Assembly (NCBI GenBank): GCA_038227045.1
Contig: JBBRQD010000009.1
Location: 14,112 to 78,111 of the forward strand
Length of the DNA stretch: 64,000 nucleotides
Direction of reading: 5' to 3'
Source: Planctomycetota bacterium
GTDB taxonomy: Bacteria > Planctomycetota > SZUA-567 > H5-PLA8
In this document: in pieces, positions 1,204 through 46,253 of the stretch
Layout: each line of letters opens with the position of its first letter
Numbering within the stretch: the first letter of the stretch is position 1
Made by a program: the position numbers and the translations under genes
The notes under the pieces: model-generated
What the model saw: the letters and a program-made list of their open reading frames with translations, nothing else
What the model was told of the DNA's origin: nothing
Databases searched by the model: none

Positions 1204-2550
1204 CTACCCCTTAAACTCCCAACCCTTCCGATACTCGCGATGAATGAACTTGTCCGCCTCCGGCGCATTCGTCGCGCGCATGGCCTCAGCGTCCCATTCC
1301 AATTTCTTGCCCACGCGATACGCGACATTCCCAAGGTGATTGGCTTCGGTCAGCCACCCGGCGTATTGGAAATCCGCCAGGCTCTGCTTGCCGGATTTGC
1401 AGCCGTCGATCCATTCGGCGTAATGGCTGGACACGTGCGGAATCGTCGGATCCGGTTTCTTGAAATCGACGAACTGGTTTTCAGGCAGCAGCAGATACTT
1501 GCTGTAATCGGCCAGCAACATGCCTCGGTCGCCGATGAACAAAATGCCGTCACCCCATTTCGGAATGCCGCCCGATTTGAAAATCTCCGGCTTCTCGTCG
1601 CCCTGGTACCAAGTCAATTTCACCGCCGGCATGTCGCCGCGCGGACCGTATTCATAGACCGCGCGCATCGACGCCGGCGCAATCTCCGGATGGGGCGGGG
1701 GACCGAACGCTTCGACGGTGAGCGGCGCGCGCAGCTTCAGCGCCCAGAACGCCAGATCGTTGCGATGGCTGCCGAGATCACTCATCGTCCCATTTCCATA
1801 ATCCCACCAGCGATACCATTTCGGGCCGGGAACATAAATCGGATTGAACGGCCGCTCGACCGCCGGACCTTGCCACAAATCCCAGTCCAAACCATCCGGC
1901 ACCGGCGCGGATTCTTTCGGACGCTCCGTGACGGAGACGAGATCCTTGTTTTTCTTCGCGTCGTCGGCGCTCTGAAAACCCCACGCGCGCGAAACCCAGA
2001 CATGCGCTTCGCGCACGGGCCCGATCGCGTTGTGTTGAACCAATTCGACCACGCGGCGATACGTGTCACCCGCATGAATCTGGATGCCCATCTGAGTGGT
2101 TACGGTGGTCTTCGCCGCCGCCTCGCGAATTTTTCGCGCTTCGAAAATATTGTGAGTCAGCGGCTTTTCGCAATAGACATGCTTGCCGTGCTGCAGAGCC
2201 AGGATCGTCGCAAACGCGTGCGTGTGTTCGCAGGTGCTGATCACCACGGCGTCGAAGTCCTTCGCGTCGTCGAAGACTTTGCGGAAGTCCGAATACTTTT
2301 TCGCGTTCGGATATTTCGCCCCCTGAGCGTCAAGGGCCTTTGAATTGACGTCGCAGAGCGCCACGATGTTCTGCGATTCGACGCCCTTCAAATTCGATCC
2401 GCCGCGCCCGCCGGCGCCGATGATCGCAATGTTGAGTTTGTCGTTCTTCTCGTCCGACCGAACAAGCGACGGACGCAACGCCAAAGCCCCGGCAGCACAC
2501 AGCGCGGCTTTGGAAAACTGACGGCGAGAGAATGTTTTGCTGTGAGTCAT
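1204..2550 (-). CDS. Gfo/Idh/MocA-family oxidoreductase with Tat signal
   Basis: [25 protein letters not shown] is a twin-arginine signal. [12 protein letters not shown] is a Rossmann motif. I trimmed the start to ATG 2550, which has GGAGGC 8 nt upstream. The longer track ORF (to 2739) runs through intergenic repeats. Confidence 0.9.
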
Positions 2551-2607
2551 CACGATGCCTCCAGAAATATGGAAAATAAAACCACAAACGAACAAAGTCA
2601 TCGAATT

Positions 2608-2690
2608 CAGCTTGAGCCCTTTTAAAGGGTGCCACTGGTAGCGGCAGTTTGCAACCAGTGCCGAATCGGAAAAAGCGTGCCAAATTCCAA
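2608..2690 (+). repeat. REP-like hairpin element, family F6, copy A
   Basis: cagcttgagc..gggtgccactggtag-[core]-aaccagtgccgaatcgg..aaattcc. It matches copy B (inverted) and copy C at 7469..7553. Confidence 0.75.
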
Positions 2691-4762: not shown

Positions 4763-6703
4763 ATGACTGAATCCACGGCCATTCCGCGCGAACTCGCCGG
4801 TCTGCGCATGCTCGCGAGGCAGTTCCCGAATGTCGATTCCACGCTCGCGGAGATCGCCCGCCTTTCAGCCGAATTGACTCTCCCCAAAGGCACCGTGCAC
4901 GTCATCAGCGACGTTCACGGCGAAGCCAAAAAACTGCGCCATATCATCAACAACGCGTCGGGCACGCTGCGCCCACTGGCCGAGAGCCTCTTCGCCGGGC
5001 GCATGGACGCGAAACAGTTTCAGGATTTCCTCAACCTCGTTTTTTATCCGCATGAATTCAGCGAACGGCTCGAGGCCAGCTTGAGCGATCCGCAGGCGCT
5101 CTGCCTGTTCGCGCAACGCGTGCTGTCCGACATGTTCGAAGTGCTGCGCGTGCTCTGCCGGCGCTATCCGATGAATTACGCCGTCGCCGTTTTCCCCGTG
5201 GAATACCGCGATCTGTTCATTGAAATCCTGCACCAGCCGAGCATGGACCACGGACAGGAATACATCGCCGCGGTCGTCGAAGACATGACGCGCCGCGGCC
5301 GCGTGATGCAGTTGATTCAACACACTTCGCGCGCGATTCGCAAACTCGCGGTCAGCGAAATCGTGCTCGACGGCGATTGCTGGGACCGCGGCCCGCGCGG
5401 CGATCTCGTCGTCGATTATTTGATGAAGCAACTGCGCGTCGCGTTCGTCTGGGGCAATCACGACACCGCCTGGTTCGGCGCCGCGCTGGGACACGACGCG
5501 CTGATCGCCCACGTGCTGCGCCTGTCGCTGCGCTACCGCCGCCTGTCGCAGTTGGAAGAAGGTTACGGGATCACGCTTCAGCCGCTCGAACACCTCGTTC
5601 GCACCGTGTACGGCGACGACCCGGCGGCGAGCTTTGCGCTGAAAGGCACCGGCTTGCGCGACACGGTGACGATGCAGCGGATGCAGAAAGCCGCCGCGAT
5701 CATGCAGTTCAAGCTCGAAGGCCAGATGATCGCGCGCAATCCGGAATGGGAGATGGACCACCGCCGGTTGATGCACCACATCGATCTCAAAGCCGGTACG
5801 ATTGAAATCGACGGCACGAATTACCCTTTGAAAGACACACATTGGCCGACCGTCGATCCATCAAATCCTTACGAACTGTCCGACGACGAAAAGAAGTGCA
5901 TGGCGCGCATCCGCGAATCGTTCCTGCGGAGCGAGAAACTCACCGGCCACGTCACGCACATGATCTCCAATGGAAGCATGTACGTCACGCGCGACGACCA
6001 CCTGATTTTCCACGGCTGCGTGCCGGTCGACGAACAAGGCAAGTTCCTGCCAATGACCGTCGATGGCCAGCCCTACACCGGCCGCGCGCTCTTCGAAGCC
6101 ATCGAACGCGTCGTCTCGCGAGTGCCGGAGAAAAAGGCGCTCAAGGATCTCGACCTGCTCTGGTATCTCTGGAGCGGCCCGCGCTCGCCGCTCTTCGGCA
6201 AAGACCGCATCACGACGCTCGAATCCTCGTTGATCGAAGACAAGGCGACCCATCACGAAACCAAGAATCCGTACTTCAGGCTGATCCACGAAAAAGGATT
6301 CTGCGACACGATACTCGCCGAATTCGGGATGAACACGGAGCGCGGCCTGATCGTCAACGGGCACGTCCCGGTCAAAGTCGAAAAAGGCGAAGATCCCGTC
6401 AAGCGCAGCGGCAAGGCCATCACCATCGACGGCGCATTCTCCGAAGCCTACGGCGATCACGGTTACACGCTGGTGCTGGAAGCGGGCCAAACCTATCTGG
6501 CCGAACACAGCCATTTCGAATCGGTCGAAGCCGCGCTGCGCGACGGAGTGGACATCATCCCCAAAATAACCGCGATCCGAAAATGGGAGCGCCCGCGCCG
6601 TGTGGCGGACACCGAACGCGGCTTGCTGATTCGCGCGGAGATCGAATTGCTGGAGAAATTGGCCGACGCCTATCAGTTGAACGCATTGCGGGAAATACGC
6701 TGA
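4763..6703 (+). CDS. fbp: fructose-1,6-bisphosphatase, class 3
   Basis: The 646-aa length is typical of class III FBPase. Metallophosphoesterase motifs VHVISDVHGE and FVWGNHD are present. AAGGAG lies 7 nt upstream of the ATG. Confidence 0.9.
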   Translation: MTESTAIPRELAGLRMLARQFPNVDSTLAEIARLSAELTLPKGTVHVISDVHGEAKKLRHIINNASGTLRPLAESLFAGRMDAKQFQDFLNLVFYPHEFSERLEASLSDPQALCLFAQRVLSDMFEVLRVLCRRYPMNYAVAVFPVEYRDLFIEILHQPSMDHGQEYIAAVVEDMTRRGRVMQLIQHTSRAIRKLAVSEIVLDGDCWDRGPRGDLVVDYLMKQLRVAFVWGNHDTAWFGAALGHDALIAHVLRLSLRYRRLSQLEEGYGITLQPLEHLVRTVYGDDPAASFALKGTGLRDTVTMQRMQKAAAIMQFKLEGQMIARNPEWEMDHRRLMHHIDLKAGTIEIDGTNYPLKDTHWPTVDPSNPYELSDDEKKCMARIRESFLRSEKLTGHVTHMISNGSMYVTRDDHLIFHGCVPVDEQGKFLPMTVDGQPYTGRALFEAIERVVSRVPEKKALKDLDLLWYLWSGPRSPLFGKDRITTLESSLIEDKATHHETKNPYFRLIHEKGFCDTILAEFGMNTERGLIVNGHVPVKVEKGEDPVKRSGKAITIDGAFSEAYGDHGYTLVLEAGQTYLAEHSHFESVEAALRDGVDIIPKITAIRKWERPRRVADTERGLLIRAEIELLEKLADAYQLNALREIR

Positions 6704-9819: not shown

Positions 9820-10623
9820 CTATGCTTTCGCGGCCACCGGCGTCTTGGGTGCGGCCGGTTTCGGCGCAACGGGAGCTGGCTTGGGCGCGGCGGCCACAGG
9901 CACGGGCGTCGGAACCGGAACCGTGGGCTTTGGAGCGGGTGTTGGCGCGACGGCCACAGGTGCGGGCACCGGCGCTGGAACCACAGGTTTCGGAGCGGGT
10001 GCTGGCGCGGCAGCGACAGGTGCCGTCACCGCAGGCGGCGCAACCACTGGTTTCGGTGCGGCTGGCGGCGCGGCGGGCGCATGTTTCTGCTTTTCCGCCG
10101 GCTTGTTCTCGATGGCCTGCTTCGGCGCGAGAATCAATCCGACGCGCTTGCCTTCGCGGAACGGAGGGCGTTCGACTTTTGCGCAATCGCCCATCTGCGT
10201 GACGACGCCTTTGAGAATCTGTTCGCCTAGGCTTTGATGCGCAATTTCGCGGCCCTTGTAAATCATCGTGAACTGCACGCGATGGCCTTCTTCGATGAAT
10301 TCTTTGGCGTGCATGACCTTGATTCCCAAATCGTGCGGTCCGATTTTGAAACTCAGGCGCACTTCTTTAAGATCGTGGGCATGGGCCTTCTTGCGGGCCT
10401 TCTGCTCTTTTTTCTGCTCGTGATAAATGTGCTTGCCGTAATCCATGATGCGGCACACGGGCGGTTCGGCTTTCGGCGCAACTTCGACCAGATCGAGTTC
10501 AACTTCCAGCGCCTTGGCACGCCCCTGATCGCCTGTCATGACTCCCAGTTGATCGCCGGTCGATCCGATGACACGGACCGTCTTGGCCTTGATCTCGTGG
10601 TTGATGCGAAGTCTCTCTGTGAT
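9820..10623 (-). CDS. infC: translation initiation factor IF-3, ATC start codon, with about 100-aa Pro/Ala-rich C-terminal extension
   Basis: PPVCRIMDYGK...LKEVRLSFKIGPHDL...HRVQFTMIYKGRE. The frame stays open 28 codons upstream of the track ATG, giving I-TERLRINHEIKAKTVRVIGSTGDQLGV. It reaches an in-frame TAA, contains no ATG/GTG/TTG, and has ATC at 10623..10621 placed 7 nt after AAGGAG. Confidence 0.9.
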   Translation of the reverse strand: MTERLRINHEIKAKTVRVIGSTGDQLGVMTGDQGRAKALEVELDLVEVAPKAEPPVCRIMDYGKHIYHEQKKEQKARKKAHAHDLKEVRLSFKIGPHDLGIKVMHAKEFIEEGHRVQFTMIYKGREIAHQSLGEQILKGVVTQMGDCAKVERPPFREGKRVGLILAPKQAIENKPAEKQKHAPAAPPAAPKPVVAPPAVTAPVAAAPAPAPKPVVPAPVPAPVAVAPTPAPKPTVPVPTPVPVAAAPKPAPVAPKPAAPKTPVAAKA

Positions 10624-19697: not shown

Positions 19698-19793
19698 GAA
19701 ATCGATCCTCCATATAACACTATTGTTTCTTGAAATTGCATAAACCAGCGGCCATTGAATTGTTCAAACGATGCCATATAATTATCGTCGCTG

Positions 19794-19948: not shown

Positions 19949-20503
19949 ATGCATCCAGATTTGGAAATTGCGCAGTATGGCGCGGCCGGGCTGCTGCTCG
20001 TCTTGGCGCTGGCCTTGACAGGCGGGCTGATGTTTCTGTCGCATTTAGTCAGCGTCAGCAACCCCACCAAAGAAAAACAGATGTCCTACGAGTGCGGCGA
20101 AGACCCCGTCGGCACTGCGTGGCTCCGCTTCAATATTCGCTTTTACGTCGTGGCGCTGGTCTTCGTGCTGTTCGATGTCGAAATGGCGCTGATCTATCCC
20201 ATTGCCGCGATCTTTAAAAACATTACCAGCGATCCCAAAAATTGGATCGGCGCGGTGGCGGTCTTTTCGGAAGTCGCTTTTTTTCTGGCGGTGCTGTTCC
20301 TGGGATTGGTTTATATCTGGGCGAAAGGCGATTTGGGCTGGATCCGGACGTTCAAGCGATCAACGGACCAAGGTTTGCGTTCATGGAAATTGGGCAAGGC
20401 CACGCAGGCGCCGATGATTCCGATCGCGCCATACGATAAGCGTCACGCGGACGTGGAGTCGGCGAACGCCTCCAAAACAGTTCCAGAAGCGAAAGGAATT
20501 TAA
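19949..20503 (+). CDS. nuoA: NADH-quinone oxidoreductase subunit A, with C-terminal extension
   Basis: KQMSYECGEDPVG...FDVEMALIYP. The start is set at ATG 19949, behind GGAGGA. The protein is 184 aa, against the usual 120-145 aa. Confidence 0.9.
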   Translation: MHPDLEIAQYGAAGLLLVLALALTGGLMFLSHLVSVSNPTKEKQMSYECGEDPVGTAWLRFNIRFYVVALVFVLFDVEMALIYPIAAIFKNITSDPKNWIGAVAVFSEVAFFLAVLFLGLVYIWAKGDLGWIRTFKRSTDQGLRSWKLGKATQAPMIPIAPYDKRHADVESANASKTVPEAKGI

Positions 20504-20506
20504 ATT

Positions 20507-21046
20507 ATGGGAGTGATGAGCAACCGCTTTGAGGCGGACAACATCGTCATGACCAACGTGGATACTCTGCTGAATCTGGGCAAGGAGCATTCCATTTGGT
20601 ACCTGCTTTTCGCAACGGCCTGTTGCGGAATCGAGTTGATGCAGACCGGTGCCAGCAAGTTCGATGTCGATCGCTTCGGCATGATTCCGCGCACGACGCC
20701 GCGCCAGGCGGATTTGATGATCGTCGCCGGGACGATCACGCACAAGATGGCCAGCCGCGTCAAGCGGCTCTACGAACAAATGCCCAACCCGAAGTGGGTC
20801 TTGTCGATGGGCTCCTGCGCCAACGCGGGTGGCCCGTTCTGCAAGTTCAGTTACTCGGTGTTGAAAGGCATTGACAAATATATTCCAGTGGACGTCTACG
20901 TCCCCGGCTGTCCGCCGCGTCCGGAAGCGCTGATCGAAGGAGTCTTTAAACTCCGCGAAAAGATCAAGCTCGAGCATGTGCTGCGAAAAGAAGGCAGAGC
21001 GCTGCCCAAGCGCGAGCCGATTATTATCGCGGATCACGCGGCATAG
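20507..21046 (+). CDS. nuoB: NADH-quinone oxidoreductase subunit B
   Basis: FATACCGIE, GSCANAGGPF and VPGCPPRPEAL are the N2 cluster ligand motifs. Confidence 0.95.
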   Translation: MGVMSNRFEADNIVMTNVDTLLNLGKEHSIWYLLFATACCGIELMQTGASKFDVDRFGMIPRTTPRQADLMIVAGTITHKMASRVKRLYEQMPNPKWVLSMGSCANAGGPFCKFSYSVLKGIDKYIPVDVYVPGCPPRPEALIEGVFKLREKIKLEHVLRKEGRALPKREPIIIADHAA

Positions 21047-21088
21047 GAAAGTGGCAGGAAAACGAGATGGGTGTTCGGCTTATCAGAA

Positions 21089-21123
21089 GCGAAATGGCCT
21101 TGCTGTTAAGGCCATTTCGTTTG
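21089..21123 (+). terminator. terminator-like hairpin directly after nuoB
   Basis: gcgaaatggcctt-gctgtt-aaggccatttcg(t) forms a 12-13-bp stem followed by TTTGG. In unit 2 only the 5' arm is kept, and a different hairpin replaces the rest. Confidence 0.45.
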
Positions 21124-21190
21124 GCGGAATGAAACAAACTATTGAACAATCGGAATAGTCAACGTGAAATGGCGCGCCACAGGAGCTTTT

Positions 21191-22795
21191 ATGCAAAAAA
21201 ATTCGACATCATTGAAGTGTTTATGCCAGATTCTCTTGTTGGGTCTGGCAGTGTTGGGATCGCAACTCAGAGCTGCGGACGCCAAAAAGACCACGCCGCG
21301 AGGTGGCACTACCGACGACGCCCAGTTTACATTTCCGAATTTCATCGACGTCTCGGCCTGTGCGGGGTTCTCGCTGCAATGGGTTTCGCAGGGGCTACAA
21401 GTGGACCATGCGACTGGTAACTTCAATACAACGTGGTCGCCGACTGAGCCTAATGTGTTGAATTGTTCGGGGCATTTGGACGCGACGACGCTTACCGCGA
21501 CTTTGAAATGCCCGTCCGGCACGGGCCCGGTGGGAACCATTACTGCGACGGGAAGCAACAATGTTTATACCGGAACGTATACACTTGGCGCAGCTACTGG
21601 TCCCGTCAATATCGTGTTGACTCCAGGCGGCGGTGGCGAAGGTTCGAACAATAAAAAAGAAACCTTGAATGCCACGTTGACGCCCAATCCGGCAAAGGTA
21701 GGCGATACGGTTGTTTTCAAAGGAATACTCACCCCCGACCAAGGGCATGTGGTGACGGCTGCCGATATGGGAACGCTTTCGTTTGGCGACGGTTCTCCTG
21801 ACGTAACGCTGAACGGACTGCAATTCATTCCTCAATTTAAGGAACCCGGTTTCAGCCATGTGTATCAAAGCGAGGGTGTTTTTGATATTCATCTTCATTT
21901 GTTCAACACGTCGAACCCGCTCGACTCGGGAGCCGATTTCGATTTCTTTGAAGTGGTGGGTTCGGCCCCGGTGGCGGTCAACGGCGCGACAGGGGTGAAC
22001 GTGACGTCGAGTGTCAGCGGCGGGGGTGCGGTCGGACTGCAAATTCACGCTCAGTTATTGAGCGGGGCGGCCGACGCCACGACATCCTTTGAAGATGCCG
22101 GAGGTAATCCGGTTCCGCCGGCGGGCGGGACTCTGCAAGGGTTCACGGTTGGACAGACGGTCGCCGGGTCCGGATTAGTAGTGGGTTCAACGAATGTGTT
22201 GGATGCCGTCGGAACGACCATTGGACAAATTCGAAAAACGGTGGGTGTCTCGGATACTCTCGCGGGTGTTCCGAACGGACTGGCGAATCCGGCCAGTACG
22301 GCGTTGAGCGTTAAGAGCCTAAAGGGAAAATTCACGTTCAATCAGTCGAAATCGGATGACGTGGCCTTCAGCGCTCAATTCATGTTGCCGCCGGGTTTCA
22401 GTTTCGCGCGATCCGGAGCCAACGAGATGCAGTTCAGCATGGGTAACGTGGTCGACACCGTGCAGCTCGACACGAAAGGCAATTTAAAGTCGGCGAGCCG
22501 GGGCCGGATCACGAAATTGAGTGTCAAGATTCCAAAGCTCGCGCAGGGTGTGGCGGTGGGCGGAGAGCCAGCCAAGCTGACCGCGCAATTCAGCGCCACA
22601 GGCATGACGGGTTCCGGCTTCAACACCGAGGGCATAACATCCCAGCGTGGAACCAATGAAACGGGCAAGGTCTTGACGCGTTTTATTCAAGTCAACATGC
22701 TCTTCGCCGGTGTGGCATACGAAGTTTTGGCACCGGTCAACTATGTGATTTCGCCGGACAGCTCTTTTGGTTCGATCGCAGGCAGGCACCAATAG
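21191..22795 (+). CDS. secreted PKD-like-domain protein, paralog 1 (inserted in nuo operon)
   Basis: ATG 21191 lies 5 nt after AGGAG. The signal peptide is MQKNSTSLKCLCQILLLGLAVLGSQLRAADA. The PKD-like segment reads LTPNPAKVGDTVVFKG...FGDGSP...HVYQSEGVFDIHLHL. Confidence 0.85.
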   Translation: MQKNSTSLKCLCQILLLGLAVLGSQLRAADAKKTTPRGGTTDDAQFTFPNFIDVSACAGFSLQWVSQGLQVDHATGNFNTTWSPTEPNVLNCSGHLDATTLTATLKCPSGTGPVGTITATGSNNVYTGTYTLGAATGPVNIVLTPGGGGEGSNNKKETLNATLTPNPAKVGDTVVFKGILTPDQGHVVTAADMGTLSFGDGSPDVTLNGLQFIPQFKEPGFSHVYQSEGVFDIHLHLFNTSNPLDSGADFDFFEVVGSAPVAVNGATGVNVTSSVSGGGAVGLQIHAQLLSGAADATTSFEDAGGNPVPPAGGTLQGFTVGQTVAGSGLVVGSTNVLDAVGTTIGQIRKTVGVSDTLAGVPNGLANPASTALSVKSLKGKFTFNQSKSDDVAFSAQFMLPPGFSFARSGANEMQFSMGNVVDTVQLDTKGNLKSASRGRITKLSVKIPKLAQGVAVGGEPAKLTAQFSATGMTGSGFNTEGITSQRGTNETGKVLTRFIQVNMLFAGVAYEVLAPVNYVISPDSSFGSIAGRHQ

Positions 22796-22803
22796 GAACG
22801 GAC

Positions 22804-22834
22804 ATGGAATTCGACAACATCGCAAATATCGTCA
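22804..22834 (+). pseudogene. duplicated 5' fragment of nuoC (first 10 codons, MEFDNIANIV)
   Basis: It is a 31-nt exact copy of the nuoC start. It continues into unrelated sequence as a 57-codon ORF that ends at 22974. Confidence 0.65.
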
Positions 22835-22896
22835 TGGCAAAGAAAGTGGGATGGGCCTCTGGCCCATCAAAAAGCGAAATGGCCTTGCCTCTGTTC

Positions 22897-22921
22897 ACCC
22901 CTCCCCCCTTGGGGAGAGGGG
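22897..22921. repeat. CCCCTC..GGGGAGAGGGG palindromic hairpin (family F7)
   Basis: cccctccccccttggggagagggg. Related copies lie at 46097..46120 and 46232..46253. Confidence 0.6.
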
Positions 22922-22970
22922 AACTGAACGTATTGAAAAATCGGAATGCAATAGTGTCCCAGGAGCTCCT

Positions 22971-24578
22971 ATGAAACAGCGTTCGACAACAACACAGTTT
23001 TTTTGTCGGATATTCCTGCTTTGCCTGGCCGCGTTAGGATCGCAACTCGTCGCTGCGGATGCCAAAAAGACTGCACCGCGAGGGAACGGATCCACCGACA
23101 GCGCCCAGTTTACATTTCCGAGTTTCATCGACGTCTCGGCCTGTGCGGGGTTCTCGTTGCAATGGAGTTCGCAGGGTCTCCAGGTGGACCATGCGACCGG
23201 CGACTTCAATACAACGTGGTCTCCGACCGAGCCTAATGTGTTGAATTGTTCGGGGCACTTGGACGCGACGACGCTTACCGCGACTTTGAAATGCCCATCT
23301 GGCACGGGCCCGGTCGGAACCATTAATGCGACGGGAAGCAACAATGTTTATACCGGAACTTACACACTCGGCGCGGCGACGGGTCCTGTCAATATCGTGT
23401 TGACTCCAGGCGGTGGTGGGGGTGGCGGCGGCGGTGGCCATCCGACCGTGACTGCCGCGTTGACGCCCAATCCGGCAAATGTGGGGGATACAGTTGTTTT
23501 TAAAGGGACGATCACCCCGCCGCAAGGCAATGTGATTACGTCCACGGCCATGGGAACGGTGACATTCGGCGATGGTTCTCCCGCAGTCACTTTGGAAGCG
23601 CTGCAATTCATTGCGCAATTCAAACAAACCGGTTTCGAACACGTGTACCAAAGCGCAGGTGTGTTCAACGTGCACCTTTATTTGTTTGACACAACGGACC
23701 CGCCCGGTCAGGGAGATAATATCGATTACTTTGAAGTGGTGGGTAACGCCCCGGCGGCGGTGAACGGTGCAAACGGATTGAACGTGACGGCGAGCGTCAG
23801 CGGCGGCGGAGCGGTCGGGCTGCAAATCCACGCACAGTTATTGGCCGGAGCAGCCGATGCCACCACATCCTTTGAAGATGCCGGAGGCAATCCGGTTCCG
23901 CCAGCGGGCGGGACTCTGCAAGGGTTCACGGTTGGACAGACGGTCGCAGGATCCGGATTAGTAGTGGGATCAACGAATGTGCTGGATGCCACGAGCACGA
24001 CCATCGGACAAATTCGCAAGACCGTGGGCATTTCAGACATGCTCGCGGGCGTTCCGAACGGACTGGCGAATCCGGCCAGCACGGCGTTGAGCGTCAAGAG
24101 CCTCAAAGGAAAATTTACCTTTAATCAGTCGAAATCGGACATTGTGTCTTTCAGCGCTCAATTCATGTTGCCGCCGGGTTTCAGTTTCGCGCGATCCGGA
24201 GCCAACGAGATGCAGTTCAGCATGGGCAACGTGGTCGACACCGTGCAGCTCGACACGAAAGGCAATTTAAAGTCGGCGAGCCGGGGCCGGATCACGAAAT
24301 TGAGTGTCAAGATTCCGAAGCTTCCGCAGGGCGTGGCGGTGGGCGGAGAGCCAGCCAAACTGACCGCGCAATTCAGCGCCACAGGCATGACGGGTTCCGG
24401 CTTCAACACCGAGGGCATTACGTCCCTGCGTGGAACCAATGAAACGGGCAAGGTCTTGACGCGTTTTATTCAAGTCAACATGCTCTTCGCCGGCGTGGCA
24501 TACGAAGTTTTGGCACCGGTCAACTATGTGATTTCGCCGGACAGCTCGTTTGGTTCAATCGCAGGCAGGCATCAATAG
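22971..24578 (+). CDS. secreted PKD-like-domain protein, paralog 2
   Basis: ATG 22971 lies 5 nt after AGGAG. The signal peptide is MKQRSTTTQFFCRIFLLCLAALGSQLVAADA. The protein is collinear with paralog 1. The track ORF start at 22767 is an artefact that reads through the duplication junction. Confidence 0.85.
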   Translation: MKQRSTTTQFFCRIFLLCLAALGSQLVAADAKKTAPRGNGSTDSAQFTFPSFIDVSACAGFSLQWSSQGLQVDHATGDFNTTWSPTEPNVLNCSGHLDATTLTATLKCPSGTGPVGTINATGSNNVYTGTYTLGAATGPVNIVLTPGGGGGGGGGGHPTVTAALTPNPANVGDTVVFKGTITPPQGNVITSTAMGTVTFGDGSPAVTLEALQFIAQFKQTGFEHVYQSAGVFNVHLYLFDTTDPPGQGDNIDYFEVVGNAPAAVNGANGLNVTASVSGGGAVGLQIHAQLLAGAADATTSFEDAGGNPVPPAGGTLQGFTVGQTVAGSGLVVGSTNVLDATSTTIGQIRKTVGISDMLAGVPNGLANPASTALSVKSLKGKFTFNQSKSDIVSFSAQFMLPPGFSFARSGANEMQFSMGNVVDTVQLDTKGNLKSASRGRITKLSVKIPKLPQGVAVGGEPAKLTAQFSATGMTGSGFNTEGITSLRGTNETGKVLTRFIQVNMLFAGVAYEVLAPVNYVISPDSSFGSIAGRHQ

Positions 24579-24586
24579 GAACGGAC

Positions 24587-25156
24587 ATGGAATTCGACAA
24601 CATCGCAAATATCGTCAAAGCGGGCTGGCCGAGCGTCACGACGCCGAAAGTGGACGCCGGCGATTCGTTCATGTTGGTCCCGGCGGACGACGCACACGCG
24701 GTGTTGAAATTTCTGAAGGAAGACGAAGACCTGTTCTTCGACAGCCTGATGTGCCTCAGCGGTGCCGACACCGGCCGCGAATTGTGGGTCGTCTATTCGC
24801 TGCACAGCATGACGCATTTCCACAAGGCGAGCGTAAAAGTGGTCTTGCCGCGTGAAAACCCGGAGTGTGACACGGTCTCCGATCTGTGGGCTATGGCGAA
24901 TTTTTTCGAACGCGAGGCGTACGATTTGTACGGCATCCAGTTCAAAGGCCACCCCGACTTGCGGCGCATCATCAATCCGCCAGATTGGATCGGCTGGCCC
25001 GGCCGCAAGGATTACGAATACCCCGCCGACTACCACGGCGTCCCAACGCTGCGCGAGGACCAATTTTTCGCCGACTCGGTCGGTGCGGGCAACGAAGACC
25101 GCGAAGAAAAAGAGAAGGCGATGCTGGAGAAGTTGGGGCTGGTCGAGAAGAAATAA
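24587..25156 (+). CDS. nuoC: NADH-quinone oxidoreductase subunit C
   Basis: NFFEREAYDLYGIQFKGHPDLRRI is the 30-kDa subunit signature. Confidence 0.93.
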   Translation: MEFDNIANIVKAGWPSVTTPKVDAGDSFMLVPADDAHAVLKFLKEDEDLFFDSLMCLSGADTGRELWVVYSLHSMTHFHKASVKVVLPRENPECDTVSDLWAMANFFEREAYDLYGIQFKGHPDLRRIINPPDWIGWPGRKDYEYPADYHGVPTLREDQFFADSVGAGNEDREEKEKAMLEKLGLVEKK

Positions 25157-25159
25157 CGA

Positions 25160-25282
25160 CCTCGCACAAAGGCACGAAGAACACAAAGAAGCACAAAGAG
25201 GAGAGAGTTAAGGGCAGAGATTTTGAATTGAATTTGTTGTTTTGTTTGTGGTGCCTTTTGTTCTCTGAGCCTTTGTGCGAGG
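25160..25282. repeat. imperfect 123-nt palindrome in the nuoC-nuoD spacer
   Basis: The arms cctcgcacaaaggc (25160..25173) and gcctttgtgcgagg (25269..25282) are exact complements. The interior is partly complementary (cacaaag / ctttgt runs). Confidence 0.6.
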
Positions 25283-25385
25283 GGCCTTAATGCGCAATGT
25301 GCAACTTATGTAACGCAATTGCGGTGATTGAATCGGTCTTTGTAGTTCGCAACTCAATTCGTTTCGCTGGAAGGAATTACGACCC

Positions 25386-26603
25386 ATGCCGATGGTCGCT
25401 GAAAATTTAGTCGAAGTCGAAGTGGCCGACACCAAAGGCCGCATGAACTCCGAGGAGATGGTGCTCTCCATGGGGCCGCATCACCCGTCCACTCACGGCG
25501 TGTTGCGCCTCGAAGTCGTCACCGATGGCGAGGTCTGCGTCTCCTGCCGGCCGGATATCGGCTACCTGCATCGGGCCATCGAAAAGATCGGCGAGTACGT
25601 CGATTATCGCCAGTTCATGCCCTACACCGACCGCGTCGATTACGTCTGCTCGATGAATTCCAACCACGCCTACGCGCTGGGCGTCGAGAAACTGGGCGGC
25701 ATCAAAGTGCCGCTGCGCGCGGAACTGATGCGCGTGATGGTCGCCGAACTCAACCGCATCTCCAGCCACATGGTCTGCGTCGGCGCGCTGGCCATGGACA
25801 TGGGCGCGTACACGCCCTTTCTGCATGGCCTGTGCCACCGCGAACGCGTCAACGACATCTTCGAAGAAGTCTGCGGCGCGCGTCTCACTTATAATTACAT
25901 GACTATAGGCGGAGTCGCCTACGATGCGCCGCCGGGATTCATCGAAAAGTGCGACGAGTTCGCCGATTATCTCTGGCCGCGCATGGTTGAGTTCAACGAA
26001 CTCATCACGTCCAATTCGATCTTCAAAGACCGCCTCTGCAATGTCGGCATCTGTCCGCGCGACAAGGCCATCAACTGGGGTCTCGTCGGTCCCAATCTGC
26101 GCGGTTCGGGCGTCAAGTGGGACATCCGCAAAGACGAACCGTATTCAATCTACGACAAACTGAAATTCGACGTGCCCATCGGCGACGGCGGCGTTCCGCA
26201 CGGCAGCAATCCGGACGGCACGCTGGGCGACAGCTACGACCGCTACGTCGTGCGCGTCAAGGAAGTCTTCGAATCGATCAAGATCATCAAGCAAGTCTGC
26301 GTGATGATGCGCGAAAACGAAAAATTGCCCGCCGATCACCCGGACCGCTTGTCACAGGCCAAATTGCCAGGCCGCTTGAGAGTCAAGCGCGGCGAAGCCT
26401 ACGTCCGCAGCGAAAATCCGCGCGGCGAAACCGGCTATTACATCATCAGCGACGGCACGGACAAACCGGTGCGCATGAAAATCCGCACAGGCTCGTTCAC
26501 TGCGCTCGGCTGCTTCGAGGAAGTCACGCGCGGATTGCTCATCGGCGATGTGATCGCAGTGATTGGGAGCTTCGACATTGTATTGCCGGAGGTGGACAGG
26601 TAA
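25386..26603 (+). CDS. nuoD: NADH-quinone oxidoreductase subunit D
   Basis: MGPHHPSTHGVLRL...YTDRVDY...HRAIEK; 405 aa. Confidence 0.95.
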   Translation: MPMVAENLVEVEVADTKGRMNSEEMVLSMGPHHPSTHGVLRLEVVTDGEVCVSCRPDIGYLHRAIEKIGEYVDYRQFMPYTDRVDYVCSMNSNHAYALGVEKLGGIKVPLRAELMRVMVAELNRISSHMVCVGALAMDMGAYTPFLHGLCHRERVNDIFEEVCGARLTYNYMTIGGVAYDAPPGFIEKCDEFADYLWPRMVEFNELITSNSIFKDRLCNVGICPRDKAINWGLVGPNLRGSGVKWDIRKDEPYSIYDKLKFDVPIGDGGVPHGSNPDGTLGDSYDRYVVRVKEVFESIKIIKQVCVMMRENEKLPADHPDRLSQAKLPGRLRVKRGEAYVRSENPRGETGYYIISDGTDKPVRMKIRTGSFTALGCFEEVTRGLLIGDVIAVIGSFDIVLPEVDR

Positions 26604-26604
26604 C

Positions 26605-26892
26605 GTGTTGAAGAAAGTAATCACAACCGGACTAATGCTCCTACTTATTTCGTTGTCCGGCTGCGGCGGCAATTCGATGCAGGACATCACGACCAAGGCC
26701 GAAAAAGCCAAGACCCGCGCGCAACTTGAAGCGGCTCTGGGCAAGCCGGATAAGTTTGAGAAAGCAAAATTGGGCGTGTCGTTCGAATCGTGGCGGTACA
26801 CGGCGACGGACGGAGAAGTCGAATTCGGGATCGTCAACGACAAGGTTATCACTGTTGGAACGATGCCGAAGAAAAAAGAGCAAAAACAGTAG
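26605..26892 (+). CDS. small lipoprotein encoded between nuoD and nuoH
   Basis: GTG 26605 lies 1 nt after the nuoD stop and 11 nt after GGAGG. The sequence VLKKVITTGLMLLLISLSGCGG carries a lipobox (LSGC). The remainder is Lys-rich and soluble. Confidence 0.6.
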   Translation: MLKKVITTGLMLLLISLSGCGGNSMQDITTKAEKAKTRAQLEAALGKPDKFEKAKLGVSFESWRYTATDGEVEFGIVNDKVITVGTMPKKKEQKQ

Positions 26893-26920
26893 CGAATTTT
26901 AAAGAGGGAATCAACCGGAC

Positions 26921-28396
26921 ATGCCATTTCTCAACGATCTCTTCACGCATTGGAACTTCGGCCCGCTCTGGGTGTACTGGGGGCCGGTGTTTGCCGTTGT
27001 GATTCCCTGCTTGGTGGTTTTCCTCGGCATTCAGGCCGTCGCGGGGTTGAGCACTTATGTCGAGCGCAAAATCGCCGCCGATATTCAGCGCCGCGTCGGG
27101 CCCAACAAATGCAACTTCGGCTCGCTGCTCGGCGCCTTTGCGCGCGCCACGGTCGCCAACGGAAAGAGCGCTCATGCCGGGATGACGGGAAAGTTGATGG
27201 CGTTCGCGCTGACACCCGCCGTGCCGCTCCTCGATCTCGTCGATAAAGTCGCCTTGCGCTTCGCGCCCGGCGTGATGATTTTTCTCGCCGACGGCATCAA
27301 GCTGATCATGAAGGAAGACATTATCCCCGATCCGGCCGACAAGCCGCTCTTCAAAATCGCGCCGACCATCGTGCTCGCCGCGGCTCTGGGCGCGCTGGCC
27401 GTACTGCCCTATTCGGACGCGTGGTACGTCGCGGATTTCAACATCGGAATCTTCTACATCGCCGCGGTCACCAGCATCGAAGTGCTGGGAATCCTGATGG
27501 CCGGCTGGGCCAGCAACAATAAATGGGCGCTGCTGGGCGGAATGCGTTCGGCCGCGCAAATCGTGTCCTACGAACTCCCCGTCGGCCTGTCGATCCTCAC
27601 CGGCATCGCGATCAGCGGCACGTTGTCCATGCAGGGCATGACCTACGAACAGTTCGGATTTGTGGACAATAGCGGTTCGATGGCGACCGGCTGGTTCTGG
27701 CAATGGAATGTTTTTCATCCGGCCATGTTCGTGCTCTTCCCGGTCTATTTCCTCTCCGCGCTCGCCGAATGCAACCGCACGCCGTTCGATATTCCCGAAG
27801 CGGAATCGGAACTCGTCTCCGGCTACCACACCGAATATTGCGGCATGCGCTTCGCCTTTTTCTTCATGGCCGAATACGCGATGATGTGCGTGACCTGCGC
27901 GATCGCCGTCACGCTGTTTCTGGGCGGCTGGGCGACGGGCATCGGCTTTATCGAGAATCTATTGATGTCGTCAGGCCCGGAATTCGTGAACGGCGTGATG
28001 ACGAAACCGCCGCAATTCGCCTGGTACGGCACGCTGATTCATCTCGGCGTATTCTGCGCCAAGACCTATTTCCTCGTCTTCATCATGATGTGGATTCGCT
28101 GGACTCTGCCGCGTTTTCGCGTCGATCAGATGATGACCGTCTGCTGGAAAAAGCTGATCCCGCTCTCGATGATGTGCTTCGGCGGAGTCTGCGTGTGGCA
28201 GCTTGTCCGCATGATGATCCTGGCGCGCGGCGGCGGCGAAACGCTCGCCACGCTGACATTCTGGCTGCGCCTGCTGTTCGCGTTCGCGGTCGTCGGAGCG
28301 GTGGTGTGGTACTTCACGAAGCCTTTGACGAAAGAACAGATCGATCAGCGCGAAATGTTGGCGAAGGCCAATATGAACATGGGCGCGGCACTTTAA
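26921..28396 (+). CDS. nuoH: NADH-quinone oxidoreductase subunit H, enlarged (491 aa)
   Basis: YVERKIAADIQRRVGPN...LADGIKLIMKEDIIP...LAECNRTPFDIPEAESELVSGYHTEY. An extra block of about 55 aa lies between GPN and ADGIKL, and there are further insertions. Confidence 0.92.
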   Translation: MPFLNDLFTHWNFGPLWVYWGPVFAVVIPCLVVFLGIQAVAGLSTYVERKIAADIQRRVGPNKCNFGSLLGAFARATVANGKSAHAGMTGKLMAFALTPAVPLLDLVDKVALRFAPGVMIFLADGIKLIMKEDIIPDPADKPLFKIAPTIVLAAALGALAVLPYSDAWYVADFNIGIFYIAAVTSIEVLGILMAGWASNNKWALLGGMRSAAQIVSYELPVGLSILTGIAISGTLSMQGMTYEQFGFVDNSGSMATGWFWQWNVFHPAMFVLFPVYFLSALAECNRTPFDIPEAESELVSGYHTEYCGMRFAFFFMAEYAMMCVTCAIAVTLFLGGWATGIGFIENLLMSSGPEFVNGVMTKPPQFAWYGTLIHLGVFCAKTYFLVFIMMWIRWTLPRFRVDQMMTVCWKKLIPLSMMCFGGVCVWQLVRMMILARGGGETLATLTFWLRLLFAFAVVGAVVWYFTKPLTKEQIDQREMLAKANMNMGAAL

Positions 28397-28417
28397 AAAC
28401 GAAGCGGGAATTAATCG

Positions 28418-29122
28418 ATGATCCGATTCATGCAGGACATTTTTGACGGAATGAAGACATTCATGTCGGGGATGAAAGTCACCGGCGGCTACCTGGTCGA
28501 TTCGAACATCAAATCGAAGGAGGCCGCGACCACCGTGACCGTTCTCTACGACGGTTCGGAGGCATTGGCGAAGGAAGTCAAACTCGCCGACCGCTTCCGC
28601 GGGCATCTGCACAACGACATCGAACGTTGCATCGTCTGCAAAGCCTGCGCGAACGTCTGCCCGATCGACTGCTTCTGGATCGACGGCGAAAAGACCGAAT
28701 CGAACAAACTGCGCCCCAGCCGTTTCGACATCGATCTGTTGAAGTGCATGTACTGCGGGCTGTGCGTCTTCGCCTGTCCGACCGGTTGTTTGACGATGAC
28801 CAAGGAATGGTGGGGTTCGACATTCAACAACACCGACGGCACGAATCTACACGGGCAACTGAAGCGGTTCGGAGTCGGCTACTACACGCCGGAGAAAAAA
28901 GAGCAAGTCGAGCGCAAGCGCATAGAAGCCGCCGAAGCTAAGAAGAAAGCCGCCGCCGCCGCAGCAGCAGCGAAAGCCGCCGCCGCAGCAAAGGTTGCTG
29001 CAGCCGCGCCCGCCGCCGCGGCGAAATCGGCCGCGCCTGCAGCCGTCCCGGCGACAACAGCTCCAGCCGCCGCGACGGCAAAGGTCGCGGAAGTACCGAA
29101 GCCCGACGCGCCAAAAGCGTAA
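28418..29122 (+). CDS. nuoI: NADH-quinone oxidoreductase subunit I with Ala/Lys/Pro-rich C-terminal tail
   Basis: CIVCKACANVCP and CMYCGLCVFACP are the two 4Fe-4S motifs. The tail begins KKKAAAAAAAAKAAAAAKVAAAAPAAAAKSAAPAAVPATT. Confidence 0.92.
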   Translation: MIRFMQDIFDGMKTFMSGMKVTGGYLVDSNIKSKEAATTVTVLYDGSEALAKEVKLADRFRGHLHNDIERCIVCKACANVCPIDCFWIDGEKTESNKLRPSRFDIDLLKCMYCGLCVFACPTGCLTMTKEWWGSTFNNTDGTNLHGQLKRFGVGYYTPEKKEQVERKRIEAAEAKKKAAAAAAAAKAAAAAKVAAAAPAAAAKSAAPAAVPATTAPAAATAKVAEVPKPDAPKA

Positions 29123-46096: not shown

Positions 46097-46253
46097 CCCC
46101 CTCTCCCCCCGGGAGAGGGCCGACGAGCAGCCGTATCGCTCGCGGGGCGAGGGAGATCGTTGACTAATCAGCGCATATTGATTAAATCAGCGACCTCCCT
46201 CACCCCGGACTACGCTTGCGCTCCGTCTCGACCCTCTCCCGGGAGAAGAGGGC
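46097..46253. repeat. two F7 palindromic hairpins (46097..46120 and 46232..46253) flanking a short spacer
   Basis: The two hairpins are ccctctcccccc-gggagaggg and ccctctccc-gggagaagaggg. Confidence 0.6.

Follow-up and report, generated by a model that had tools for sequence, protein, structure and literature searches.

The nuoB-nuoC-nuoD block of the complex I genes ranks among the most conserved gene neighbourhoods in bacteria, and in some lineages its genes have even undergone fusion. In Paracoccus denitrificans and Rhodobacter capsulatus, the nqo/nuo clusters contain scattered unidentified reading frames (URFs), and supernumerary subunits on the P side of the membrane are represented by the mitochondrial CHCH-domain proteins NDUFA8, NDUFB7, NDUFS5 and NDUFB10 and by the lumenal PnsL subcomplex of chloroplast NDH; a large periplasmic subunit is not known to us from any bacterial complex I. 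Here, we analysed a stretch of 64,000 nucleotides from a Planctomycetota contig (JBBRQD010000009.1; hereafter the window), in which a gene for a protein predicted to be exported, termed X, stands between nuoB and nuoC in two tandem copies, X1 and X2. The fixation of a 1.6-kb gene of this kind inside the nuoB-nuoC-nuoD block across a clade is unusual because that neighbourhood is so highly conserved in bacteria, and no description of a nuoB-X-nuoC arrangement was found in the literature. We lean towards reading X as an envelope protein that is carried by the operon.

A duplicated gene inside the nuo cluster

ORF listing combined with Pfam and NCBIfam scans gave the gene order nuoA-nuoB-X1-X2-nuoC-nuoD-lipoprotein-nuoH-nuoI (Table 1), in agreement with an earlier sequence-only reading of this DNA (the first-pass annotation), which had placed a secreted protein gene of about 535 aa, present twice, between nuoB and nuoC. 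Aligned over 1792 columns, the units 21047..22834 and 22835..24617 are 83% identical, a similarity far above chance, and the register between them is constant at 1783 nt from position 21311 onward. Exact copies of the 31-mer that opens nuoC, atggaattcgacaacatcgcaaatatcgtca, stand at two places only, 22804..22834 and 24587..24617; the exact repeat already reported for these 31 nt in fact extends 14 nt further leftward, to 45 nt (22790..22834 and 24573..24617). At the internal junction, leader-like sequence takes over from the repeat directly after nuoC nt 31. With collinear direct units and a nuoC fragment at their junction, the X1/X2 arrangement is a head-to-tail duplication, as had been proposed. 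The right breakpoint is sharp, directly after nuoC nt 31, which is the first base of nuoC codon 11, and was thus correctly placed inside that codon; the left one, originally set just after the nuoB stop, can be placed only to ~10 nt around that stop, possibly within the last nuoB codons, because leader 2 (upstream of X2) has diverged from leader 1 (the nuoB-X1 spacer). The leader copy said to follow the junction is likewise a loose one only, its common parts with leader 1 being two 17-nt blocks and a short start (gaaagtgg..gatggg). The duplicated nuoC start also opens a chimeric ORF (Table 1) whose TGA overlaps the X2 ATG (ATGA); translation of X2 may be coupled to this nuoC-type start, or the overlap may be a coincidence.

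Close relatives of X are few, comprising nine proteins among 5.8 billion protein clusters, two of them from the window itself, with a few more recovered through DNA scans. A scan of GTDB genomes with a single protein found no X, whereas an alignment-based scan of these genomes did find homologs. In a synteny comparison of the relatives, X homologs were linked to nuo genes wherever the flanks were readable, and all full-length homologs with flanking sequence stood between nuoB and nuoC in single copy. The order nuoB-X-nuoC with one X recurs in about ten independent lineages of uncultured Planctomycetota, which supports the earlier proposal that this order is ancestral. Among these relatives (denoted by L numbers), identity to X1 is 82% in L001/L002, 79% in L003, 61% in L007, 55% in L010 and in L011+L013, 52% in each of L008, L009 and L020, and 47% in the L004 group (L004-6, L012, L014, L021 and L022; one species). 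Where X is 47% identical, NuoB is 97% and NuoD 95% identical, and X therefore evolves much faster than its neighbours. In L009, nuoC and nuoD are separated by a further two small ORFs of 144 and 84 aa (1898..2616), neither with a Pfam match.

One relative, L015, has the order nuoA-B-C-D-lipoprotein-H-I without X, with a nuoB-nuoC spacer of 200 nt and identities to the window of 93% (NuoB), 80% (NuoC) and 91% (NuoD). In the NuoC tree the X-bearing lineages were grouped apart from L015, but with a bootstrap of only 59%. A single gain of X by the ancestor of the clade is likely, its loss in L015 less so. The L015 spacer (5800..6000) contains three GTGCA-N-TTTTGCAC palindromes and two hairpins, possibly a binding array for a regulator.

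The domain description given for X, a signal peptide followed by a Cys-containing N-terminal domain, a PKD domain and a beta-rich C-terminus, was borne out by Pfam, by the alignment of orthologs and by structure prediction. X1 is laid out as a signal peptide (residues ~1-30), an N-domain (41-144), a Gly-rich linker, a PKD domain (158-256) and a C-terminal module (261-530). Its N-terminus is that of a typical Sec signal, with a basic start, ~16 hydrophobic residues and a conserved ..QLxAADA.., and X is predicted from it to be exported; no lipobox Cys was found in the X1 signal region (...LLLGLAVLGSQLRAADAKK), which is not of the bacterial-lipoprotein type. Two Cys of the N-domain are conserved in all orthologs and likely form a disulfide, a third being limited to the closest orthologs, and residues 41-144 gave no sequence match in Pfam, NCBIfam or the PDB. 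The PKD domain (Pfam PF00801 / PF18911) of X1 scored 26.5 bits, above the gathering cut-off of 23.5, and that of X2 scored 20.2 bits, under the cut-off, the X2 PKD segment being 65% identical to that of X1; in addition, the X family profile matched the PKD domains of ColH (E 2.5e-12, PDB sequences). The first part of the C-terminal module is PKD-like in 5 of 24 relatives, and its last ~180 residues gave no sequence match in Pfam, NCBIfam or the PDB.

An AlphaFold2 (AF2) model built from a 58-sequence alignment was all-beta, with a predicted local distance difference test score (pLDDT) of 88.5 and a predicted template modelling score (pTM) of 0.71; it was used in place of a run from nine close homologs, in which the C-terminal half was unusable (pLDDT 50). 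The fold matches of the whole model were strings of Ig, FN3 and PKD domains, as in fibronectin, complement C3, the S-layer protein SbsB, mastigoneme, adhesin and phage tail fibres, at TM-scores of ~0.15 (Foldseek), which indicate a shared domain class only. An autotransporter or outer-membrane beta-barrel C-terminus was rejected, given the lack of a Pfam match and top whole-model fold matches that were Ig-like sandwiches, not barrels; the C-terminus, checked against the C-terminal aromatic beta-signal, reads ...GRHQ in X and GRxx in relatives. A type IX secretion sorting domain (TIGR04183 and related) was also rejected, with no NCBIfam match at E <= 0.1. Apart from PKD, no homology of X to core or accessory subunits of complex I was found in Pfam or NCBIfam, and its PDB sequence and fold matches were of the Ig/PKD type only.

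An exhaustive profile search placed X in a much wider family. In 399 cluster representatives (132 below 1e-30), which are 250-2179 aa long, the combination of PKD and C-terminal module stands at the very end of the protein, and nearly all of the profile matches listed finish within a few residues of the protein C-terminus. X has the same ending, a PKD domain followed by the conserved ~270-aa module at the very C-terminus, and F383, D389, G418, G476 and G481 are invariant in both alignments A2 and A3. The N-terminal parts vary across the family and include Kelch propellers and Big_9, cadherin-like, G8 and PQQ-like domains. All four members with an organism name are from Planctomycetota, and two distant members, P0169 and P0138 (L018 3538..7844 and L019 3480..7748), have neighbourhoods without nuo genes; these names and contexts come from few members, the word-indexed protein search, saturated by PKD words, having yielded almost no members outside the close family. 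The P0169 and P0138 genes stand divergently beside a conserved pair encoding a 300-aa protein of unknown kind and a 1114-aa PatA_N/PEGA/PQQ_2 protein, which may be another conserved partnership of the family. No further family member was found elsewhere in the window. X is a short member of this large family of exported proteins, whose link to nuo is confined to the subfamily bearing the X N-domain. As a domain family, the C-terminal module appears to be undescribed, and it is possibly a sorting or anchoring signal in a phylum with poorly known envelope biology.

Mosaic history of the two copies

Mismatches between X1 and X2 are unevenly spread, with a density of 27% over 21611-22010 and of 3% over 22361-22834. 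As a species baseline, the synonymous divergence (dS) of the flanking genes is 0.17-0.21 for the window versus L001 (nuoA, B, C, D and H) and 0.24-0.6 for the window versus L003. In the N-domain, dS between X1 and X2 is 0.26 and that of either copy to L001 is 0.9; neighbour-joining (NJ) paired X1 with X2 (87%), joined L003 to them (100%) and left L001 outside. In the PKD segment, dS between X2 and L001 is 0.20, as between orthologs, while X1 lies at 0.75 from X2 and at 0.98 from L003, and NJ paired X2 with L001 (99%), joined L003 (99%) and left X1 outside. In the C-terminal 180 codons, the two copies are again paired (98%), at a dS of 0.20. The X1 PKD segment is not long-branched, since its nucleotide identity to the outgroup L007 is 64.6%, versus 60.3% for X2. 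On these trees, the split between the PKD segments of X1 and X2 is apparently older than their divergence from the sister genomes.

For each segment of X1 and X2 alike, the ratio of nonsynonymous to synonymous divergence (dN/dS) falls within 0.03-0.43, which indicates purifying selection; both copies therefore encode working proteins, and the diverged segment does not stem from positive selection, an explanation that was further rejected for the PKD segment by its dN/dS of 0.29 and by the elevation of dS itself. A comparable mosaic was found in a genome with one X. In L001, the N-domain of the X ortholog (5574..5924) has a dS of ~0.9 inside flanks that are near-identical to the window (nuo dS ~0.2), and it branches outside the window and L003. 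This pattern shows replacement of an allele segment at the single-copy X locus of L001, and hence that allele exchange occurs there.

Two histories fit the segment pattern. The duplication may predate the split from L003, with gene conversion having homogenised the N-domain and the 3' end and the sister genomes having collapsed to one copy. Alternatively, the duplication may be younger, and a divergent allele segment may have been imported afterwards. The depth of the L001 N-domain (dS 0.9) is similar to that of the X1 PKD split, and the first history predicts as much. Gene conversion between the copies would be our reading of the alignments.

Envelope protein or complex I component

The expression signals of the cluster suggest a single transcript. 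A consensus scan found one sigma-70-like match on the plus strand of 19.5-29.5 kb, upstream of nuoA (Table 1), and neither a promoter-like site nor a plus-strand terminator-like site in leader 1 or leader 2; the scan is a crude one for the sigma-70 consensus, which other promoter classes would escape. No Rfam family matched in 19.5-29.5 kb. The nuoB-X spacers of L007 and L008 are 22 nt and their X-nuoC spacers 10-11 nt long, and therefore leave no room for independent signals. The first-pass annotation had pointed to a hairpin near 21089..21123, where transcripts might end. The hairpin is real (21087..21122, a perfect 16-bp stem folding at -45 kcal/mol, z -3.0), but it has no U-tract (tail GGCGGAAUG), received no call in the terminator scan and is missing in relatives with nuoB-X spacers of 22-25 nt, relatives having other hairpins or none; a conserved terminator or attenuator was thus rejected. 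Because of the gene spacing and the promoter and terminator scan, X is probably co-transcribed with the nuo genes.

Of the two readings that had been left open for X, an accessory component or a hitch-hiking gene, the evidence leans towards the latter without settling the matter. We consider it somewhat more probable than its alternatives together that X is an envelope protein co-expressed with the operon and not part of the enzyme, and X would then lack a role in complex I. We favour this because X belongs to a generic exported family, changes fast, exchanges alleles and has been duplicated with a diversified middle, and because the L015 operon does without X, its GC content at third codon positions (GC3) is below that of the nuo genes (62-64% in X1/X2, 76-80% in nuoB, C, D and H, and 68-73% in other genes of the window) and the operon tolerates other insertions. 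Exposed proteins typically show allele exchange and duplication with a diversified middle domain, and the REP-like elements described below, together with the two extra L009 ORFs, are a sign that nuo operons of this clade probably accommodate insertions.

On this envelope-protein reading, a single insertion would have brought the X gene between nuoB and nuoC in the ancestor from which a clade of uncultured Planctomycetota descends, and purifying selection on its protein would have retained it at that site. The putative promoter upstream of nuoA would drive its transcription together with the nuo genes, and its own ribosome-binding site its translation into a periplasmic or surface protein that exploits the constitutive expression of the operon. 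In the window genome, unequal exchange would then have made a head-to-tail copy of the segment that runs from the end of nuoB or the leader, through X, up to nuoC nt 31, and segmental recombination would have reshaped both paralogs, the N-domain and the last 475 nt being held similar, most likely through gene conversion, and the signal peptide, linker and PKD segments representing old or imported alleles. Should X prove not to bind complex I, its locus remains a clean natural case of a foreign gene frozen inside an essential operon, with a tandem pair that shows concerted evolution and allele exchange.

Several points weigh against this reading. The position of X is strictly kept across saturated synonymous divergence (dS above 1.4), as a functional link to complex I predicts, and a second exported protein, the small lipoprotein, is kept in the same cluster, which hints that the operon may encode periplasmic partners on purpose. 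Moreover, co-transcription is deduced from spacing and the crude sigma-70 consensus scan, and the duplication was observed on a single metagenomic contig.

The first two of these points bring in the view that X is an accessory component of complex I, whether as a supernumerary subunit that faces the periplasm or as a factor for assembly or stabilisation. X would dock on the P side of the membrane arm, perhaps with the small lipoprotein, and X1 and X2 would be its two isoforms. We hold this to be unlikely. The constant location of full-length homologs between nuoB and nuoC down to 47% identity, spacers that several lineages keep as tight as 10-25 nt, purifying selection on X, a subfamily-specific N-domain with two conserved Cys, a second conserved exported protein in the cluster and an enlarged NuoH all speak for it. 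However, the L015 operon has the lipoprotein without X, X changes at 5-10 times the rate of the Nuo proteins and exchanges allele segments between lineages, as is typical of exposed envelope proteins and not of subunits whose interfaces are fixed, the PKD domain and C-terminal module are the generic ending of many unrelated secreted proteins, tandem duplication is unusual for a stoichiometric subunit, and GC3 is lower than in the nuo genes. In its most specific form, this view would have the Q-module gene block encode, as two isoforms with differing PKD domains, a large supernumerary subunit or dedicated assembly factor that faces the periplasm, and X would be the first of its kind in a bacterial complex I, which we regard as slightly more doubtful still; the small lipoprotein could be a second P-side partner. 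If X does bind complex I, bacteria would have in it a counterpart of P-side accessory subunits that are otherwise known only in mitochondria and chloroplasts.

That the tandem arrangement is an assembly artefact, in which the X alleles of two co-occurring strains were joined, is improbable. The contig is metagenomic, X1 and X2 were each found on this contig only in the collection of 5.8 billion protein clusters, the junction 32-mer had no match in the JGI metagenome or GTDB genome collections, every other lineage is single-copy, and the X2 PKD segment is as near to L001 as the flanking genes are, like the allele of a second strain. Nevertheless, nuoC nt 31 is joined to tggcaaagaaagtggg..., a sequence expected there in no single-copy genome, and tggcaaagaaagtggg... 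matches no other part of the window identically, so that no shared k-mer was available to create the join. Leader 2 is distinct and internally coherent, with its own hairpins and ribosome-binding site, the 17% difference between the copies rules out repeat collapse or expansion errors, and the N-domains of X1 and X2 are mutual closest relatives, unlike that of L001, as fits paralogs in one genome. Least credible of all is a simple recent duplication in place followed by point mutation only, with a faster middle domain: the unit ends are 95-98% identical and the junction block is an exact 45-mer, and the duplication itself stands, but plain point divergence is rejected because the segment trees conflict (X1 PKD falling outside X2, L001 and L003 with 97-100% bootstrap, yet as close to L007 as X2 or closer) and because dS differs between segments (0.75 for PKD versus 0.20 for the C-terminal end), which neither relaxed nor positive selection on the protein can explain.

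Neighbouring features and comparison with known systems

The gene content of the window is that of Planctomycetota, with PSCyt1/PSCyt2/PSD1, DUF1501, BatA and sulfatase genes present. The nuo cluster (19949..29122) is limited to nuoA, B, C, D, H and I; family scans found no nuoEFG within it, including the nuoD-nuoH gap, and no nuoJ-N within the 64-kb window. A GDSL lipase gene on the minus strand directly follows nuoI. The enlarged NuoH carries ~55 inserted aa after its RRVGPN motif and is extended at the C-terminus, where it has an additional hydrophobic segment, and NuoI carries an Ala/Lys/Pro-rich tail of ~70 aa. The small lipoprotein, the second exported product of the cluster, is without any Pfam family and is kept in L001, L004, L013 and L021 as well as in the X-less L015; its ORF occupies the nuoD-nuoH gap, the site of nuoEFG in 14-gene operons.

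Table 1. Features of the nuo cluster and the X duplication (window positions).
Feature	Position	Strand	Basis or remarks
Sigma-70-like promoter match, TTGAAT-16-TATAAT, upstream of nuoA	19755..19782	+	Consensus match; putative function
nuoA	19949..20503	+	Pfam Oxidored_q4, E 5e-31; start set from 184-aa orthologs
nuoB	20507..21046	+	Pfam Oxidored_q6 and NCBIfam NuoB, 236 bits
Leader 1 (nuoB-X1 spacer)	21047..21190	+	Hairpin; AGGAG ribosome-binding site 5 nt before X1 ATG
X1, predicted exported protein, 534 aa	21191..22795	+	ORF listing, Pfam, ortholog alignment, AF2 model
Duplication junction block, 45 nt	22790..22834	+	X stop, nuoC ribosome-binding site, first 31 nt of nuoC
Chimeric 56-codon ORF, MEFDNIANIV + 46 aa from leader 2	22804..22974	+	Begins at duplicated nuoC start codon and ribosome-binding site
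Leader 2	22835..22970	+	Hairpins 22850..22868 and C-rich 22898..22921; AGGAG 5 nt before X2 ATG
X2, second copy, 535 aa, 86% protein identity to X1	22971..24578	+	
nuoC, complete	24587..25156	+	Pfam Complex1_30kDa, E 5.5e-38
Inverted repeat, 38-nt arms, 82% complementary, 47-nt loop	25160..25282	.	Within 229-nt nuoC-nuoD spacer
nuoD	25386..26603	+	Pfam Complex1_49kDa, E 2e-85
Small lipoprotein gene, 95 aa, between nuoD and nuoH	26605..26892	+	Signal MLKKVITTGLMLLLISLSGC, lipobox LSGC
nuoH, 491 aa, enlarged	26921..28396	+	Pfam NADHdh, E 2e-102
nuoI, last gene of cluster	28418..29122	+	Pfam

The spacers of the cluster contain further repeated elements. A C-rich element (CCCCTCYCCCC - loop - GGGGAGAGGGG) recurs in the window at 22898..22921 and 46098..46124, in L003, where it forms the hairpin CCCCTCTCCCC/GGGGAGAGGGG at 9910..9935, and in L004, between X and nuoC. 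The X-nuoC spacer of L001 holds a long inverted repeat, which is its only content, and the length of this spacer was thus rejected as a remnant of a second copy; a 22-nt piece in it is related to the inverted repeat of the window nuoC-nuoD spacer (Table 1), which looks like a REP/MITE-type element (repetitive extragenic palindrome or miniature inverted-repeat transposable element) that may move within the operon between genomes. Because the spacers of the other X-bearing genomes carry different and unrelated hairpins and inverted repeats, these look like dispersed REP-like elements rather than conserved regulators.

How X compares with the described systems differs from one to the next. Both the URFs of Paracoccus and Rhodobacter and X are lineage-specific genes that have no relation to the 14 core subunits and lie within a complex I operon; both, as spacing and promoter scan suggest in the case of X, are transcribed with it. 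The URFs, however, are small, mostly cytoplasmic or membrane-bound and alphaproteobacterial, whereas X is a predicted exported multi-domain protein of 534 aa, situated between nuoB and nuoC in a Planctomycetota clade and duplicated here. The P-side subunits of mitochondria and chloroplasts sit opposite the redox arm, some of them held by disulfides, and X is likewise predicted to be exported and has two conserved Cys; predicted topology is all that is common to them, as X consists of Ig-like beta sandwiches and has no sequence or fold relation to these subunits.

With PKD surface and S-layer proteins (Methanosarcina 1L0Q, SbsB 4AQ1 and the collagenase ColH), X shares PKD domains and Ig-like strings, at a TM-score of ~0.15 that speaks for a domain class only, and its N-domain and last ~180 residues set it apart from them. 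Tandem surface-protein paralogs under concerted evolution resemble X1 and X2 in their homogenised flanks, diverged centre and conflicting segment trees; the X array differs from them in lying inside an essential respiratory operon and in keeping a fragment of the downstream core gene at its junction. The X locus is a combination of the two kinds, a lineage-specific gene in a complex I operon, of a sort already known, and a tandem duplication that evolves, on our reading, by conversion.

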